24,423 bases of DNA from a virus (taxonomy: Duplodnaviria > Heunggongvirae > Uroviricota > Caudoviricetes), in IMG/VR virus record IMGVR_UViG_2531839474_000007, positions 1-24,423 of that record; one strand, given 5' to 3'. Of this stretch, positions 116 through 24,423 are shown piece by piece. The notes beneath the pieces were generated by a model. The model ran no database searches. It saw nothing but the letters and a program-made list of their open reading frames with translations, and was not told the origin of the DNA. The translations under genes were made by a program, and so were the position numbers. The stretch's first letter is position 1; each line of letters begins with the position of its first letter.

Positions 116-775
116 CTAAATATGTATATGTTTACCAACAACCACATATGAACTACCTGCTTTGCTCCATGATTTTATTATTTCTAAATTATTATCTGAG
201 CATATTTTACTTACAGTATCCACATCTAATAAACCATAGTAGAAAGCATTGCGAGAGTTTTGGTATATATACCCATGCAAATGTTTAATACCGCTCTCGT
301 ACCTCTTGAAATAAGAACTTTTGTATTGATTGACAATCAGTGCTTCACCATCACTCTTTAATAATTCTCTAATCGCACTGAGGACTTTGTGAATTGTGGA
401 TTCACATGGAATTGCGGAAAGCACGTTTGCGCAAAGTATGAAATCATAATGATTTGTTATTTTATCTATATTTTCATAAGAAACAATATTAGCATTCTTA
501 TAGTTATTTATCACGTAATCTGGAATCGTGGTTTGTACACCTCTGATAATTTGCACTCTTTCTAGTTGTCTTCTGGAATCTAAAAATGTCACAGTTTCAA
601 ATTTATTTACTAATTGTTCTGAATATCTAAGTTTTCCACATCCAAAATCAATGGCATTGCCATTTTTATTAGTGCTTTCAATCTGTTTACAGAGATAGTT
701 AGATGGCATAGTGTGCGGTTTCGCTGCATTTTCTGAACGTATGTTTATTCCATTTATTTTGTAATTCAAAATCAA
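116..775 (-). CDS. class I SAM-dependent methyltransferase, substrate unknown
   Basis: 219-aa ORF from the track; motif I AIDFGCGKL (Gly-rich SAM loop), acidic post-I residue in VTFLD, motif II DFILCANVL, motif III LLKSDGEALIV. Very AT-rich. Start uncertain: TTG at 775 or 769, or ATG at 709. Confidence 0.6.
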   Translation of the reverse strand: MILNYKINGINIRSENAAKPHTMPSNYLCKQIESTNKNGNAIDFGCGKLRYSEQLVNKFETVTFLDSRRQLERVQIIRGVQTTIPDYVINNYKNANIVSYENIDKITNHYDFILCANVLSAIPCESTIHKVLSAIRELLKSDGEALIVNQYKSSYFKRYESGIKHLHGYIYQNSRNAFYYGLLDVDTVSKICSDNNLEIIKSWSKAGSSYVVVGKHIHI

Positions 776-1380
776 CCTCGTTTAAAAAATATTGTTATTG
801 TTAAAGAATTCTTTTATTTTGCTATCAGGTATTTGTCTTACTTGGCTTTCTGTTCTTGGTTTAACTGATGCTATGAAAATAAGGAAGTCAAATGCGACAA
901 GAGAAATAATCCACAACCAAAGATTAATTAAAGAGCCAGTAACAGAGAATATATTTGTTAATTTGGCGATACTTATTATTAAAATAGTAACAAATGCGAT
1001 TACTGTATGTTCAAAGAAAACCCAAAAGTAATAAACTTTGTTCCAGAAAAGTTCAACGTAATGTTTGTCTTTTAACTCTTTAACTTCTGGGTAATACAGT
1101 TTACTCATTACCTTGTGAGATTCATCAGTAGTTAATTTTCTCGTAACGCCTGCAATTTTTGCTAATGGTTTAATAATTAAATGACTATCCCACATCTTCC
1201 TTATTCCAATAATTTTTGCTACATTATTATGTAGATCTAAAGCTCCACTAATTACTGACCAAAAAACTGAAGATGCAATTGGTAATATGCCAAAGGTTAA
1301 TATCCATTTAATAAATTCCTCGTAGTCTTTAACGGGGGTGAACCGCCCCGGTTTTCCTGGAGAGTGTTTTATCTGTGAAC

Positions 1381-2268
1381 TCAGGCTGCCAGATCATCGT
1401 TTCTGATGGAAGCATAATAAGCTTTTTCTGCTTCTGCCGGAGGGATATGACCCAGCCTTCCCAGCAATCGTCGATTGTTATACCAGTCCACCCACGTGAG
1501 TGTGGCCAGTTCCACTTCTGCACGGTTTTTCCAGCTCTTACGGTGTATTACCTCCGCTTTGTAAAGACCATTGATGCTCTCCGCCATCGCGTTGTCATAC
1601 GAGTCACCTGTACTCCCTGTTGATGCCAGCAGTTTTGCTTCTTTTAGTCGCTCCGTATAGGCCAGTGATACATACTGAGAACCTTTATCACTGTGATGGA
1701 CTGTGCCGGACGGCCGACGGGCCCACAACGCCTGCTCCAGTGCATCCAGCACGAATGTCGTTTCCATAGACGATGAGACTCGCCACCCCACGATACATCC
1801 GGCAAACACATCAATGATGAACGCCACATAGACGAAGCCCTGCCATGTGCTGACGTAAGTAAAATCAGCCACCCACAGCTGGTCAGGACGTTCTGCCACG
1901 AACTGACGGTTTACGCGGTCGCCTGCGGAAACGGCTTTCCGGCTGACGGTAGTACGGACCTTTTTACCCCGGAGAACACCGGCAAGTCCCATAACCGCCA
2001 TGAGGCGCGCCACTGTACATCTGGCCACCCTGATACCTTCGCGTAACAACTGGCGCCAGACTTTACGCACACCGTACACCTGATGATTTTCATCGTATAC
2101 GCGCTGTATCTCTCTCTTCAGCCAGTCATCGCGCTGAGCACGGGCACTGCGTTTATCAGGATGATGTCGCTGTTGCTGACAGTGGTAATACGTTGACGGG
2201 GCAATATGCAGTTCACTGCATACCGGTCCGACCCCGTACTGCTCACGCAGCTTATCCAGCAGCGGCAT
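1381..2268 (-). CDS. IS629 OrfB transposase (DDE/integrase catalytic region)
   Basis: 295-aa ORF identical to the copy-2 OrfB; -1 frame relative to orfA. Confidence 0.9.
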   Translation of the reverse strand: MPLLDKLREQYGVGPVCSELHIAPSTYYHCQQQRHHPDKRSARAQRDDWLKREIQRVYDENHQVYGVRKVWRQLLREGIRVARCTVARLMAVMGLAGVLRGKKVRTTVSRKAVSAGDRVNRQFVAERPDQLWVADFTYVSTWQGFVYVAFIIDVFAGCIVGWRVSSSMETTFVLDALEQALWARRPSGTVHHSDKGSQYVSLAYTERLKEAKLLASTGSTGDSYDNAMAESINGLYKAEVIHRKSWKNRAEVELATLTWVDWYNNRRLLGRLGHIPPAEAEKAYYASIRNDDLAA

Positions 2269-2594
2269 TATTTTTTCCAGAGGCGGTCGAACTCCGCCTT
2301 CGCAAAATAAGCGGAAGCCTGGCGAAGGATATCGTTACTGCGGCGCAGTTCACGATTTTCACGTTCCAGCTCTTTCAGACGCTGACGTTCAGCGGTGGTG
2401 AGTCCACCATCACCACTCCCGGTATCCCGCTCATGCTGACGAACCCACACACGCAGAGTCTCTGGTGTACAGCCAATCTTTGGGGCAATGGAACAAATTG
2501 CCGCCCATTGTGAGTCATATTCGCCCTGACTTTCCAGAACCATACGAACTGCCCGTTGACGGACCTCGGGGGAAAAACGTGTATTTTTAGTCAT
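2268..2594 (-). CDS. IS629 OrfA (HTH DNA-binding transposase subunit)
   Basis: 108-aa [22 protein letters not shown]... with C-terminal leucine-zipper-like region; ends in the A6 tract where IS3-family -1 frameshifting occurs. Confidence 0.9.
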
Positions 2595-3374
2595 CCTGTT
2601 TACCTCTTTCTCAGGGAGTTTAGTCTCCAGGATTCCCGGGGCGGTTCAGGGGGGATATACTTGGCATTAATGCCAACCAATGGCATGTAGCCATAAATGA
2701 CTAATGATAGGTAAAATATAAATGTAGTAATAAAAGTCGCCTTATGGAGCATAGGCAACATTTCATTATAACTCTTTGGTGGTTCTAACATTTTACTCTC
2801 CAAACACTCAAAAAAAAGCTAATCTTCTATAATAACGAAATTCAGCTGGCACAATTAAAGATTAATTGCCACCAATTTCTTGATTTTATAATTTTATCTA
2901 AATGTTTTTGATTAATCTAGTCCTAAAAGAAACCTACTGCATAAATATTTATGCTGATGACCCACTCCCTGTTCGTTAACACATAGCAACGTTAGTAATG
3001 CATCCTAAGTGATCAATATTTTTGCTAGCTTCATCTGCTCGCTCAAAGGGAACTATAATGTTGGCTTGCGTGTGACTTGGCATGTTTAAAGAAGTGCTGG
3101 TGGTGACTGGTTGCTGTTTTCCATTTCCACAGAACAAAATCATAGAAACTATACCCAGTAGTTGTATTGAATCACTGACGAGACAGCCTCATATTTATCA
3201 GGACTGGTGTACGTCCAATACAGGAGGTTGTGGTGCTGGTTCTCAAATGTGCGCTGGCTATTGCTGCTGTAATGGCAATTTATTGTCTTGCTGTTGTTCT
3301 TATGGATCACCTTTCTGATTGATTTCATATTGGCGAGGTAACGGTAGTTAAGTAGAATTGCTGCGGGTGCTTGA

Positions 3375-3412
3375 GGCTATCTGCCTCGGGCATCAACACC
3401 AAAGGCAGATAG
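3375..3412 (+). promoter_or_regulatory. perfect 10-bp inverted repeat (CTATCTGCCT ... AGGCAGATAG) in the hok/mok leader; presumed mRNA structural element
   Basis: Hairpin read directly; no T-run on either strand so not an obvious terminator; lies where hok mRNA 5' regulatory structures and the antisense sok gene are expected. Confidence 0.35.
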
Positions 3413-3476
3413 AGAAAAGCCCCAGTTAACATTACGCGTCCGGCAAGACGCTTAACATTAATCTGAGGCCATATCT

Positions 3477-3689
3477 ATGCTCTACACACGTAGGTTAGCC
3501 TCTTACGTGCCGAAAGGCAAGGAGAAGCAGGCTATGAAGCAGCAAAAGGCGATGTTAATCGCCCTGATCGTCATCTGTTTAACCGTCATAGTGACGGCAC
3601 TGGTAACGAGGAAAGACCTCTGCGAGGTACGAATCCGAACCGGCCAGACGGAGGTCGCTGTCTTCACAGCTTACGAATCTGAGGAGTAA
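3477..3689 (+). CDS. mok: mok-like reading frame (in-frame N-terminal extension overlapping hok)
   Basis: 70-aa ORF with GAGG Shine-Dalgarno 8 nt upstream of ATG 3477; contains the complete Hok frame. Confidence 0.45.
   Translation: MLYTRRLASYVPKGKEKQAMKQQKAMLIALIVICLTVIVTALVTRKDLCEVRIRTGQTEVAVFTAYESEE
3534..3689 (+). CDS. hok: Hok/Gef-family type I toxin (HokD/RelF-like small membrane toxin)
   Basis: 51-aa MKQQKAMLIALIVICLTVIVTALVTRKDLCEVRIRTGQTEVAVFTAYESEE; GGAG Shine-Dalgarno 9 nt upstream; single transmembrane helix plus conserved Cys; near-identical to my recollection of HokD. Confidence 0.85.
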   Translation: MKQQKAMLIALIVICLTVIVTALVTRKDLCEVRIRTGQTEVAVFTAYESEE

Positions 3690-6834: not shown

Positions 6835-6910
6835 GGCCCTTTAGCTCAGTGGTGAGAGCGAGCGACTCATAATCGCCAGGCCGCTGGTTCAAATCCAGCA
6901 AGGGCCACCA
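6835..6910 (+). tRNA. tRNA-Ile2 (anticodon CAU, ileX/ileZ-like; lysidine-type) or tRNA-Met
   Basis: 76-nt cloverleaf folded by hand: acceptor GGCCCTT/AAGGGCC, D arm GCTC..GAGC, anticodon loop CTCATAA, T loop TTCAAAT, 3' CCA encoded; close to E. coli ileX as recalled. Confidence 0.85.
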
Positions 6911-6917
6911 TCACATA

Positions 6918-6994
6918 CCGCCATTAGCTCATCGGGATAGAACGCCAGCCTTCGAAGCTGGTTTCGCGGGGTTCGAGTCTCCGATGGCGGTCCA
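6918..6994 (+). tRNA. tRNA-Arg, anticodon UCG as read
   Basis: 77-nt cloverleaf: acceptor CCGCCAT/ATGGCGG, anticodon stem CCAGC/GCTGG with loop CTTCGAA, T arm CGGGG-TTCGAGT-CTCCG, CCA encoded; one D-stem mismatch. Confidence 0.8.
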
Positions 6995-7007
6995 TTATCG
7001 GTATTCT

Positions 7008-7084
7008 GCGTTTTTAGCTCAGCCGGACAGAGCAATTGCCTTCTAAGCAATCGGTCACTGGTTCGAACCCAGTACAACGCACCA
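7008..7084 (+). tRNA. tRNA-Arg, anticodon UCU (argU-like, reads AGA/AGG)
   Basis: 77-nt cloverleaf: anticodon stem ATTGC/GCAAT with loop CTTCTAA, T arm ACTGG-TTCGAAC-CCAGT, CCA encoded; one acceptor-stem mismatch. Confidence 0.8.
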
Positions 7085-21469: not shown

Positions 21470-22498
21470 ATGGGATTGTTTACGACCCGCCAGTTACTCG
21501 GTTATACCGAACAAAAAGTGAAATTTCGTGCGCTGTTTCTGGAGCTGTTTTTCCGCCGTACGGTGAATTTCCATACCGAAGAGGTGATGCTGGACAAAAT
21601 TACCGGAAAAACGCCGGTGGCGGCCTATGTCTCCCCGGTTGTTGAAGGAAAAGTGCTGCGTCATCGTGGTGGTGAAACCCGCGTGTTACGTCCGGGCTAC
21701 GTCAAGCCGAAACACGAATTTAATTACCAGCAGGCGGTTGAGCGCCTTCCTGGTGAAGATCCGGCTCAACTGAACGATCCGGCTTACCGCCGTCTGCGTA
21801 TCATTACCGATAACCTCAAACAGGAAGAGCACGCGATTGTCCAGGTGGAAGAAATACAGGCGGTAAATGCTGTGTTGTATGGCAAATATACGATGGAAGG
21901 AGACCAGTTCGAGAAAATTGAGGTCGATTTTGGCAGGTCGACGAAGAATAACATCACTCAGGGTAGTGGTAAGGAGTGGTCAAAACAGGATCGTGACACG
22001 TTCGATCCTACACATGATCTTGACCTCTACTGCGACCAGGCCAGCGGTCTTGTGAATATTGCCATTATGGACGGTACCGTCTGGCGTCTTCTGAATGGTT
22101 TTAAGCTGTTCCGCGAAAAACTGGATACCCGTCGCGGTTCAAATTCTCAACTCGAAACGGCAGTGAAAGATCTGGGCGCAGTGGTGTCCTTCAAGGGGTA
22201 TTACGGCGATCTGGCCATTGTGGTGGCGAAAACGTCTTATATAGCAGAAGACGGTATCGAAAAACGTTATCTGCCGGAGGGCATGCTGGTTCTGGGGAAT
22301 ACTGCTGCAGATGGGATCCGTTGTTACGGTGCCATTCAGGATGCGCAGGCGTTGTCCGAAGGTGTGGTGGCCTCTTCCCGTTATCCGAAACACTGGCTGA
22401 CGGTGGGGGATCCCGCCCGTGAATTTACCATGACGCAGTCCGCGCCGCTGATGGTGTTGCCGGACCCGGATGAGTTTGTGGTGGTACAGGTGAAATAA
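21470..22498 (+). CDS. E: major capsid protein E
   Basis: 342 aa; extensive blocks shared with lambda gpE (PGYVKPKHE, EKLDTRRGSNS, LETAVKDLG, GDPAREFTM). Confidence 0.9.
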   Translation: MGLFTTRQLLGYTEQKVKFRALFLELFFRRTVNFHTEEVMLDKITGKTPVAAYVSPVVEGKVLRHRGGETRVLRPGYVKPKHEFNYQQAVERLPGEDPAQLNDPAYRRLRIITDNLKQEEHAIVQVEEIQAVNAVLYGKYTMEGDQFEKIEVDFGRSTKNNITQGSGKEWSKQDRDTFDPTHDLDLYCDQASGLVNIAIMDGTVWRLLNGFKLFREKLDTRRGSNSQLETAVKDLGAVVSFKGYYGDLAIVVAKTSYIAEDGIEKRYLPEGMLVLGNTAADGIRCYGAIQDAQALSEGVVASSRYPKHWLTVGDPAREFTMTQSAPLMVLPDPDEFVVVQVK

Positions 22499-22506
22499 TC
22501 CGTGAG

Positions 22507-22535
22507 CGGGGGCGAAATGCCCCCGTGTCTTTTTT
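22507..22535 (+). terminator. hairpin plus T-run immediately after E (possible attenuator or mRNA stabiliser)
   Basis: CGGGGG-CGAAATG-CCCCCG then TGTC-TTTTTT. Confidence 0.45.
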
Positions 22536-22549
22536 CACAGGGGGCTGAT

Positions 22550-22924
22550 ATGGCAACGAAAGAGCAAAATCTGAAACGGCTTGATGAACTGGCCCTGATT
22601 CTGGGGCGTGAGCCGGATATATCCGGGAGTGCCGCAGAGATAGCGCAGCGGGTGGCGGAATGGGAAGAGGAAATACAGTCATCCGGCGAGGATGTTCAGG
22701 TTGGGGATACGGTGATCCGGGAGCGGGAAACCGCGGCTCATGATGTTCGTGAGGATACATCCGGTGCGTTAACGCGCATCAGAGTTCTGACCTGCCTCCA
22801 TCTCTGTAGCATTGATGGTGAAACAGGGGAATCCGTTGAGATTGCGGATGTTGGTCGGGTGATTCTGATTATGTCCTCAGATGCAAAAACACACGTTGAT
22901 GGCGGAATGGCTGTTTATGCGTGA
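22550..22924 (+). CDS. FI: DNA-packaging accessory protein FI
   Basis: Acidic 124-aa protein starting MATKEQNLKRLDELA at ATG 22550; FI position between E and FII; the ORF-track start at 22502 is an upstream extension. Confidence 0.7.
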   Translation: MATKEQNLKRLDELALILGREPDISGSAAEIAQRVAEWEEEIQSSGEDVQVGDTVIRERETAAHDVREDTSGALTRIRVLTCLHLCSIDGETGESVEIADVGRVILIMSSDAKTHVDGGMAVYA

Positions 22925-23270
22925 TTTTCAGAATGCCTTTGATGCTGCCCTTGCCGGGGTGGACAGTACGATTGTTGAAGTGATGGGGCTCTGTGCACAG
23001 TTCACCTCGGGGGCACAGTGTGGCGGAGAAGTTCAGGGGGTTTTTGACGATCCGGAGTCGCTGGGATTTGCCGGTAGCGGGGTCCGTATTGAAGGAAGCA
23101 GCCCGTCATTATTTGTGCGGACGGATACGGTTCGTGCTGTGCGGCGTGGTGACACGCTGACCATTAATGGTGAGATATTCTGGGTGGATCGTGTTTCTCC
23201 GGATGACGGGGGCAGCTGTTATCTCTGGCTCAACCGTGGGCAACCACCCGCCGTTAACCGGCGACGATAA
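22917..23270 (+). CDS. FII: head-tail connector protein FII
   Basis: Start MRDFQNAFDAA; C-terminal RRGDTLTI...FWVDRVSPDDGGSC...PPAVNRRR matches lambda gpFII as recalled. Confidence 0.85.
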   Translation: MRDFQNAFDAALAGVDSTIVEVMGLCAQFTSGAQCGGEVQGVFDDPESLGFAGSGVRIEGSSPSLFVRTDTVRAVRRGDTLTINGEIFWVDRVSPDDGGSCYLWLNRGQPPAVNRRR

Positions 23271-23285
23271 ACGCAGGGTGAAATT

Positions 23286-23819
23286 ATGGCGATAAAAGGG
23301 CTTGAGCAGGCGATTGATAATCTGAGCCGGGTTCGTAAAAACGCCATTCCGGCGGCTTCTGCAATGACCATTAACCGCGTGGCCACAACGGCGATTAATC
23401 AGTCTTCATCACAGGTTGCCCGGGAAACCAGGGTGAGACGGAAACTGGTTAAGGAACGGTCCAGACTGAAACGGGCCACGGTCAGAAATCCGAATGCCAG
23501 AATTATCGTTAACCGCGGTGATCTCCCGGTGATTAAGCTGGGGATCAGGATGCCGGGGCGTCGTCCGGACAGCATACTCAAAGCCGGTCAGCATCGTTAT
23601 CAGCGGGCATTTATTCAGCGATTAAAAAATGGTCGCTGGCATGTCATGCAGCGTGTGGTCGGGAAAAACCGTTACCCCATTGATGTGGTGAAAATCCCGA
23701 TGGCGGCCCCACTGAAACAGGCGTTTGATGAGAATGTTGACCGTATCCGGCGTGAACGTCTGCCCGGAGAACTGGCATACGCGCTGAAACAACAACTGAG
23801 GATTGCGATAAAACGATGA
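23286..23819 (+). CDS. Z: tail completion protein Z
   Basis: 177 aa starting MAIKGLEQA as in lambda gpZ. Confidence 0.85.
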   Translation: MAIKGLEQAIDNLSRVRKNAIPAASAMTINRVATTAINQSSSQVARETRVRRKLVKERSRLKRATVRNPNARIIVNRGDLPVIKLGIRMPGRRPDSILKAGQHRYQRAFIQRLKNGRWHVMQRVVGKNRYPIDVVKIPMAAPLKQAFDENVDRIRRERLPGELAYALKQQLRIAIKR

Positions 23820-24211
23820 AACATACTGATATCCGTGCTGCAGTGCTGGATGCACTGGAGCTGCATGAACACGGGGCGACGCTGTTTGATGGTCGCCCCG
23901 TTGTTTTTGACGAAGAGGATTTTCCCGCGGTCGCGGTTTATCTGACGGATGCAGAGTATACCGGTGAAGAGCTGGATGCAGATACCTGGCGGGCCACACT
24001 GCATATTGAGGTGTTTTTACCAGCACAGGTACCGGATTCGGAGCTGGATTCGTGGATGGAAAGCCGGATTTATCCGGCGATGACTGCGATCCCGGCACTG
24101 GCAGACCTGATTACCACGATGGTTACGCAGGGCTATGAGTATCGTCGTGATGACGATATGGCGTTATGGAGTTCTGCGGATCTGACTTATTCCATTACAT
24201 ACGAGATGTGA
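23816..24211 (+). CDS. U: tail terminator protein U
   Basis: 131 aa; ATGA overlap with Z; lambda gpU-like. Confidence 0.85.
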
Positions 24212-24218
24212 GGACGAT

Positions 24219-24423
24219 ATGTCAACACCAAATCCCCTTGAGCCGGTAAAAGGTGCCGGTACCACCCTGTGGGTTTATAACGGTCAGGGTGACGCCTATG
24301 CAAACCCGTTGTCAGACGATGACTGGCTGCGACTGGCTAAGGTGAAGGATCTGACGCCGGGCGAGATGACGGCAGAACCCTACGATGATAACTACCTGGA
24401 TGATGAAGACGCGGACTGGACCG
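24219..24423 (+). CDS. V: major tail protein V, 5' part only (runs off the right edge)
   Basis: [20 protein letters not shown]...[22 protein letters not shown] matches the lambda gpV N-terminus as recalled. Confidence 0.85.

Follow-up and report, generated by a model that had tools for sequence, protein, structure and literature searches.

A copy of the insertion sequence (IS) IS629 interrupts a ymfE-like gene, encoding a predicted inner-membrane protein, in a 24,423-nucleotide stretch of Caudoviricetes DNA (IMG/VR record IMGVR_UViG_2531839474_000007, positions 1 to 24,423; the whole of this stretch is called the window below). The insertion, copy 1 of two in the window, lies in a tract of G residues, and probably produced a target duplication of four bases, GGGG, rather than the three bases more usual for this element. 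Intact alleles have seven Gs (G7) at the site, while the two flanks of copy 1 carry five and six, so that 5 + 6 - 7 = 4 bases are present twice. The window is part of scaffold JH659573.1 of Escherichia coli M919 (GCA_000261145.1, which we take to be a 2012 deposit), and the host element is a lambdoid prophage. The event is an ordinary, strain-specific IS629 knockout, of an element for which 4-bp duplication is already documented, and the duplication looks odd only because its target is a homopolymer.

The element, its ends and the gene it interrupts

The inserted element is IS629, of the IS3 family. Judged against annotated elements in genomes and phages rather than the ISfinder reference, copy 1 is 100% identical end to end to copies in O145, O103, O45 and O80 genomes and 99.9% identical to a copy in O157:H7 SS52. 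With annotated phage elements it shares 99.6% identity in the case of the "IS629 transposase" of JLK-2012 and 95.6% in that of "insertion sequence:IS629" of VT2-Sakai (AP000422). The published primers IS629-insideF and IS629-insideR (sequences from PMC3271280) have exact matches in both window copies. Full-length 100% matches occur in many genomes, and in the flanks read from 18 other genomes and phages divergence begins at the first base beyond TG...CA, which places the ends of the element where a first-pass annotation of this DNA had assumed them to be. A motif search of the whole window finds TGAACCGCCCCGG at 1339 (plus strand), 2648 (minus), 10025 (plus) and 11334 (minus), a count reached by no shuffle of the window; the two 1310-bp copies that these sites delimit are mutually inverted and 100% identical. 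The two transposase genes are joined by a -1 programmed frameshift (RefSeq labels identical copies "programmed frameshift"). The features of copy 1 and its junctions are as follows.

1339..2648, minus strand: IS629 copy 1, 1310 bp with TG...CA ends; transposase on the minus strand, in the same direction as the interrupted gene
2624..2648, minus strand: IRL, the orfA-side terminal inverted repeat, TGAACCGCCCCGGGAATCCTGGAGA, the same as IRR at 22/25 positions
1339..1363, plus strand: IRR, the orfB-side terminal inverted repeat, TGAACCGCCCCGGTTTTCCTGGAGA, read from the sequence
2268..2594, minus strand: IS629 orfA, 108 aa, with a helix-turn-helix (HTH) domain (list of open reading frames; NCBIfam transpos_IS3, profile positions 1-86; Pfam HTH_Tnp_1)
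1381..2268, minus strand: IS629 orfB, 295 aa, with a DDE/rve domain (list of open reading frames; NCBIfam transpos_IS3, 312 bits; Pfam rve)
2197..2313, minus strand: ALIL pseudoknot, which stimulates frameshifting in IS3-family elements (Rfam RF01497; 120.9 bits, gathering score 50)
1335..1338, no strand: left copy of the probable GGGG duplication, within the 5-G run at 1334-1338, register arbitrary (from G7 empty sites and the 4-base flank overlap)
2649..2652, no strand: right copy of the probable GGGG duplication, within the 6-G run at 2649-2654 (from G7 empty sites and the 4-base flank overlap)

The flanks read ...TCTTTAAC GGGGG / IS / GGGGGG ATATAC..., which agrees with the first-pass description of an insertion into a G run with five Gs on one side and six on the other. 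On the minus strand, the open reading frame (ORF) beginning at 2803 (TTG) or 2791 (ATG) reads ...NAKYIPP and then enters the IS, where it meets a stop at 2600; the frame of a 137-aa ORF at 782..1195 is open as far as the IS end. When the two flanks are joined, a single continuous frame (...NAKYIPPVKDYEEF...) is obtained only after removing 1, 4 or 7 bases, and removal of 0, 2, 3, 5 or 6 bases leads to an early stop (with 3 removed, ...YIPPR*). This base-removal test upholds the earlier claim that the halves rejoin in frame with a 4-bp duplication and that a 3-bp duplication leaves a frameshift.

The empty site settles how many Gs were there in other strains. A 770-bp query composed of the two flanks and G7 matched 151 complete E. 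coli genomes, many of them at 100.0%, with the site lying under one coding sequence (CDS) annotated "hypothetical protein". The site reads TTTAAC-G7-ATATAC and lies inside one 231-aa gene (e.g. WP_000892866.1 in FORC 064). Comparison with such an uninterrupted allele had been proposed with the first-pass annotation, and tract length was accordingly scored in 146 complete E. coli genomes by exact matches to 70-72-nt probes centred on the tract: it is G7 in 134/146, G6 in 3/146 (read directly in two of them), and G8 in 0/146. The other nine have a substitution within the probe, and the three of these that were listed span 71 bases and look like G7 with a substitution in the flank. The nearest prophage relatives (ECO2947, E105, C3, PE164, C7, IAL7252 and MEI003, with 99.9% identity over 7.4 kb) are all G7. 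Aligned to ECO2947, the left flank extends to reference base 14004 and the right one starts at 14001, so that four reference bases (14001-14004) are used twice; in the same alignment three reference bases overlap at copy 2. Exact look-ups of the possible products in a collection of about 15 billion proteins located the intact allele on 1000 or more contigs; the truncated product of the G6 type was on 12 contigs, and that of the G8 type, 49 aa ending ...YIPPR, on 3. The IS629 junction of copy 1 has no match in 5,426 complete genomes, and the chimeric product EIF84152.1 (E. coli M919) is a singleton in the protein collection. The copy 1 insertion is recent and private to one strain.

The interrupted gene is divided as follows.

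2649..2791, minus strand: 5' fragment of the ymfE-like gene, codons 1-47 and two bases of codon 48, encoding only the first predicted transmembrane segment (TM1)
782..1338, minus strand: 3' fragment of the ymfE-like gene, from the last base of codon 48 to codon 231 and the stop, encoding TM2-TM4

Read together, the two fragments are one IS-disrupted gene for a 231-aa predicted inner-membrane protein, and the first-pass proposal that copy 1 divides a single membrane-protein gene at these positions is confirmed by the frame test and by the uninterrupted alleles. An ORF does extend to the TTG at 2803, as had been noted, but the actual start is almost certainly the ATG at 2791, which yields 231 aa and matches RefSeq WP_000892866.1 and all homologues, every one of which begins MLEPP or MFEPP. 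On the coding strand the tract is a run of seven Cs made up of the third base of the Ile46 codon and the whole of the codons for Pro47 and Pro48, and the IS lies in the loop between predicted TM1 and TM2. The 5' fragment now continues into the IS to give a 63-aa chimera of 48 native and 15 IS-encoded residues. The 3' fragment is promoter-less, and its largest ATG-initiated ORF is the 137-aa ORF at 782..1195. The insertion would truncate the protein after residue 48 and so inactivate the gene, whose product we take to be non-functional.

That the flanking ORFs might instead be separate genes, joined in frame by chance, has nothing in its favor beyond the 1-in-3 chance of an in-frame join, and is already refuted. 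In about 146 genomes the site falls within one annotated CDS of 231 aa, ymfE is likewise one gene in K-12, and 20 full-length homologues show no gap when aligned across the join. In that 21-sequence alignment P47, P48 and K50 (P47-P48-x-K50) are invariant and no indel occurs at the join. The reconstructed allele is 60% identical to YmfE of the K-12 cryptic prophage e14 over 230/231 aa, with no gaps (E = 2e-108). An AlphaFold2 model of a 99%-identical intact homologue (P0001) is a confident single fold, all-helical with long helices (predicted local distance difference test score, pLDDT, 87; predicted template-modelling score, pTM, 0.79). The two fragments should therefore be annotated as one IS-disrupted ymfE-like pseudogene, not as two hypothetical proteins.

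A feature of the junction itself may be recorded here. The flanking G run can pair with CCCC in the terminal repeat of IS629 (GGGG-TGAACCG-CCCC; window 1333..1350, plus strand, with the mirror site at 2637..2654), the target G7 being complementary to part of the IS629 end. The result is a short GC hairpin at the junction, followed by GGTTTTCC, which was picked up by a terminator scan and is probably an accidental by-product of insertion into a G tract.

The length of the target duplication

Rump et al. (2011, PMC3271280) found that IS629 "duplicated between 3 to 4 base pairs" in 21/47 sites. We surveyed the flanks of 36 complete 1310-bp copies, with both window copies counted, drawn from viral contigs, species-representative genomes, E. 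coli chromosomes and plasmids, and Shiga toxin (Stx) phages; most of the IS629 matches in the viral and genome collections lay at contig ends. The outcome was as follows.

Exact 3-bp repeat: 19 copies, window copy 2 included
Exact 4-bp repeat: 1 copy (AATG, in Stx1a_EH182)
Non-matching flanks with no repeat: 15 copies, left out of the duplication tally
Window copy 1: 1 copy, with homopolymer flanks from which the repeat length is not readable

The 4-bp share is therefore 1/20 of the clean repeats, or about 5% (95% interval roughly 0.1-25%), and 4-bp duplication is a real but minority outcome for IS629, within the documented range. At sites outside repetitive sequence the length of a repeat can be read without ambiguity. 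About 40% of complete copies (15/35 outside copy 1) have non-matching flanks, presumably from recombination between IS copies or from adjacent deletions after insertion. For example, seven of 12 chromosomal IS629 copies lack a duplication, as do all three complete copies on the enterohaemorrhagic E. coli (EHEC) virulence plasmid pRM8988-C1.

For copy 1, a true 4-bp target duplication is the probable explanation. IS629 would have inserted into the G7 tract of the prophage-borne ymfE-like gene, with the target cut at a 4-nt stagger, or with repair filling in 4 nt, to leave GGGG on both sides (5 G + 6 G = 7 + 4). The sequence does not distinguish a 4-nt staggered cut from gap-filling slippage as the source of the fourth base. 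A smaller, second possibility is that homopolymer targets may bias IS629 toward 4-bp duplications through slippage of this latter kind, during gap repair. We infer that all four bases were duplicated at insertion, rather than three then and one later.

Rough priors can be set beside one another. A G7 target with a 4-bp duplication has 0.92 x 0.05 ≈ 0.046, and a G8 target with a 3-bp duplication ≈ 0.003 x 0.95. A post-insertion +1 slip in a run of 5 or 6 nt is of order 10^-3, a figure drawn from general knowledge of homopolymer indel rates, given that the insertion occurs in one strain only and that no difference has yet arisen between the two IS copies. Assembly miscount is put at about 0.5-1%, somewhat above the control bound since these are runs next to a multicopy repeat of a draft scaffold. 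The control is the window's own alignment to ECO2947, which extends over 18,711 bp with 12 substitutions and no gap and takes in 126 homopolymer runs of at least 5 nt (18 of them G/C runs); the absence of any indel in 126 runs puts an upper limit of about 2.4% (95% confidence) on the error rate per run. Slippage, a G8 allele and assembly error are each roughly ten times less likely than a 4-bp duplication.

Several considerations pull the other way. Four-base duplications are the minority (1/20), and a 3-bp duplication is a priori about 20 times likelier per insertion. Homopolymer flanks hide the length of a duplication, so that the call depends wholly on the target allele having been G7. The tract is not fully stable in public assemblies, where G6 accounts for about 1-2% and G8 for about 0.3% or less. 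The window, moreover, comes from a scaffold-level assembly (GCA_000261145.1) in which the G runs adjoin a multicopy repeat, and is taken as assembled.

Of the three alternatives, an extra G miscounted in sequencing or assembly, in a homopolymer abutting a collapsed multicopy repeat of a draft genome, is the least improbable, though we consider it unlikely. Junctions of multicopy IS elements are the least reliable parts of scaffold-level assemblies such as this one, and repeat collapse could also be why the two IS copies are perfectly identical; the zero indels against a 99.9% identical reference, across all 126 runs including the 18 of G/C, tell against a miscount. It is somewhat less likely again that IS629 made a GGG duplication in a rare G8 allele that was already frameshifted. 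Three bases is the usual IS629 duplication (19/20 in the survey), and the exact G8-frameshift product on 3 contigs means that G8 alleles, or miscounts resembling them, do occur, but those 3 contigs stand against at least 1000 with the intact product, no G8 tract appears among the 146 complete genomes, and every one of the nearest prophage relatives is G7.

The least probable of the three is a 3-bp duplication after which replication slippage added one G to one of the flanking runs (or, as a variant, with an extra base of donor flank carried in with the transposon circle junction). Homopolymers do slip, G6 variants of this same tract exist, and a pseudogene is under no selection on its G count. 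Against this, the insertion looks very young, being found in one strain only with IS copies identical over 1310 bp; no other indel separates the window from ECO2947 in the 18.7 kb and 126 runs compared; and the split runs, at only 5 and 6 nt, are less prone to slip than longer ones. The choice left by the first-pass annotation, between a 4-bp duplication and later slippage of the homopolymer, is in this way narrowed: the 4-bp duplication is favored and slippage is the less likely of the two.

A ymfE/ymfD-like gene pair

The ymfE-like gene has an intact neighbor immediately downstream.

116..775, minus strand: class I S-adenosylmethionine (SAM)-dependent methyltransferase, ymfD-like, intact, downstream of the ymfE-like gene (Pfam Methyltransf_12 and Methyltransf_23; the RefSeq-equivalent CDS is 116..769)

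The methyltransferase is 68% identical to K-12 YmfD, itself a putative SAM-dependent methyltransferase. Together the two genes make up a cassette (window 116..2803) of about 30% GC in a backbone of roughly 50% GC, transcribed opposite to the flanking phage genes. The pair is adjacent in the window, in ECO2947, in FORC 064, in K-12 e14, and in P2-like prophages of Providencia and Enterobacter, in the last of which settings the cassette follows gpD-ogr. A further contig, encoding a relaxase, a reverse transcriptase and Hcp, has a ymfE-like gene followed by a gene of similar size with no Pfam call on record. The cassette is a conserved, uncharacterized pair of genes shared by several prophage families. 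In the window the methyltransferase ORF, although intact, now lies 1.3 kb of co-oriented IS away from the cassette's own promoter, and a polar effect on its expression may follow.

The 39 homologues of the membrane protein, most of them full-length at ~231 aa, come from Cronobacter, Enterobacter, Serratia, Providencia and metagenomes, with identities down to 34%. One source names the protein "E14 prophage predicted inner membrane protein", and hydropathy predicts four hydrophobic segments, at about residues 20-41, 58-80, 148-172 and 181-205. The 231-aa protein belongs to no family in Pfam, PHROGs, PADLOC or NCBIfam and has no fold match in PDB, and a literature search found no paper naming WP_000892866 and no functional work on E. 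coli ymfE or ymfD. A search of PADLOC-DB v2 gave no match for the membrane protein and only a weak, generic mad2 match for the methyltransferase (E = 3e-4).

The same gene is independently disrupted in other E. coli as well, by IS5 (TW14425), by IS1A together with G6 (14EC047), and by G6 alone (ET791 and F8111-1SC3), and the coding G tract behaves as a mutational weak point. Recurrent disruption, and residence in variable cargo slots of unrelated elements, in the lambdoid case the early-right region, would speculatively fit an accessory module that is dispensable or costly. We would put forward, with considerable doubt, the idea that temperate phages may carry the pair as a mobile, self-contained accessory module, a candidate system of the phage-exclusion or abortive-infection type in which the coding poly-G tract serves as a mutational off-switch.

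The second copy, the prophage setting and known systems

The second IS629 insertion is placed as follows.

10025..11334, plus strand: IS629 copy 2, inverted relative to copy 1, with AAG duplicated at 10022-10024 and 11335-11337, just past the stop codon of a SASA-family esterase gene

Its 3-bp duplication had been called unambiguous, and it is: AAG stands on either side of the copy, and a single AAG is found at the empty site in ECO2947. The inverted copies bracket 7.4 kb containing sok/hokD, DUF968, rusA, Q, three tRNAs and the SASA esterase, a geometry that resembles a composite transposon and offers a ready substrate for inversion. Composite transposition, or inversion between the copies, was considered and rejected, since a separate matching duplication flanks each copy and the 7.4 kb between them is collinear with ECO2947; the two insertions are therefore independent. 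Rump et al. (2011, PMC3271280) report a preference of IS629 for prophage locations, and both window copies fit it.

In ECO2947 the prophage adjoins a tRNA-Ser gene by mtfA, and its genes run in the order dicA/dicC, ydaT, a replication gene, DUF977, SMEK, the ymfD-like and ymfE-like pair in reverse orientation, hokD/sok, DUF968, rusA, Q, three tRNAs, the SASA esterase, lysis genes and terminase. It is without both of the window's IS629 insertions, and has ISEc8 and an IS629-like element (97.3% identical) at 21790-24231 and 25934-27243. The prophage backbone gathers IS elements independently in different strains.

Outside copy 1, Rfam matches above the gathering score in the window lie in 3365..3689, 6835..7081 and 7855..8027. 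They are the sok antitoxin RNA (114 bits), which lies upstream of hokD and overlaps it; three tRNAs that follow Q and are annotated Ile, Arg and Arg in the near-identical ECO2947 prophage; and the small RNA (sRNA) STnc100 (100.8 bits), a short way upstream of the esterase gene, which stands in the position of stx in Stx phages. No stx gene is present at the esterase position in the window. A 78-aa ORF at 3082..3318 (plus strand) with a cysteine-rich C-terminus (...CAGYCCCNGNLLSCCCSYGSPF) falls in the 0.7-kb gap between the ymfE-like gene and sok/hokD; this gap is unannotated, and the ORF, which RefSeq relatives do not annotate either, is possibly spurious.

The insertion serves as a worked example of how the length of a duplication inside a homopolymer can be called only from the empty site, and it adds one well-supported case of IS629's minority 4-bp duplication. 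The membrane-protein and methyltransferase cassette is possibly worth a test for phage resistance; otherwise the event has little importance beyond annotation.

The closest known counterpart of the gene pair is ymfE-ymfD of K-12 e14 (b1138, b1137), which shares its gene order, orientation and tight spacing with the pair in the window. The settings differ, in that the e14 pair adjoins the exclusion gene lit, whereas the window pair sits in a lambdoid prophage between replication/SMEK genes and hokD. As for the transposition itself, the IS3-family models IS911 and IS3 move by a copy-out, paste-in mechanism through a circular intermediate, using an OrfAB fusion transposase made by -1 frameshifting, and generate target duplications of 3 bp, occasionally 4 bp. 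By family membership, the IS629 copies in the window would be expected to behave in the same way. The element differs in nothing from the IS629 (IS3 family; isoforms IS1203 and IS1203v) of Shigella and EHEC. What sets copy 1 apart from other IS629 insertions is its site, private to one strain, its homopolymer target, and what is probably the less common, 4-bp form of duplication.

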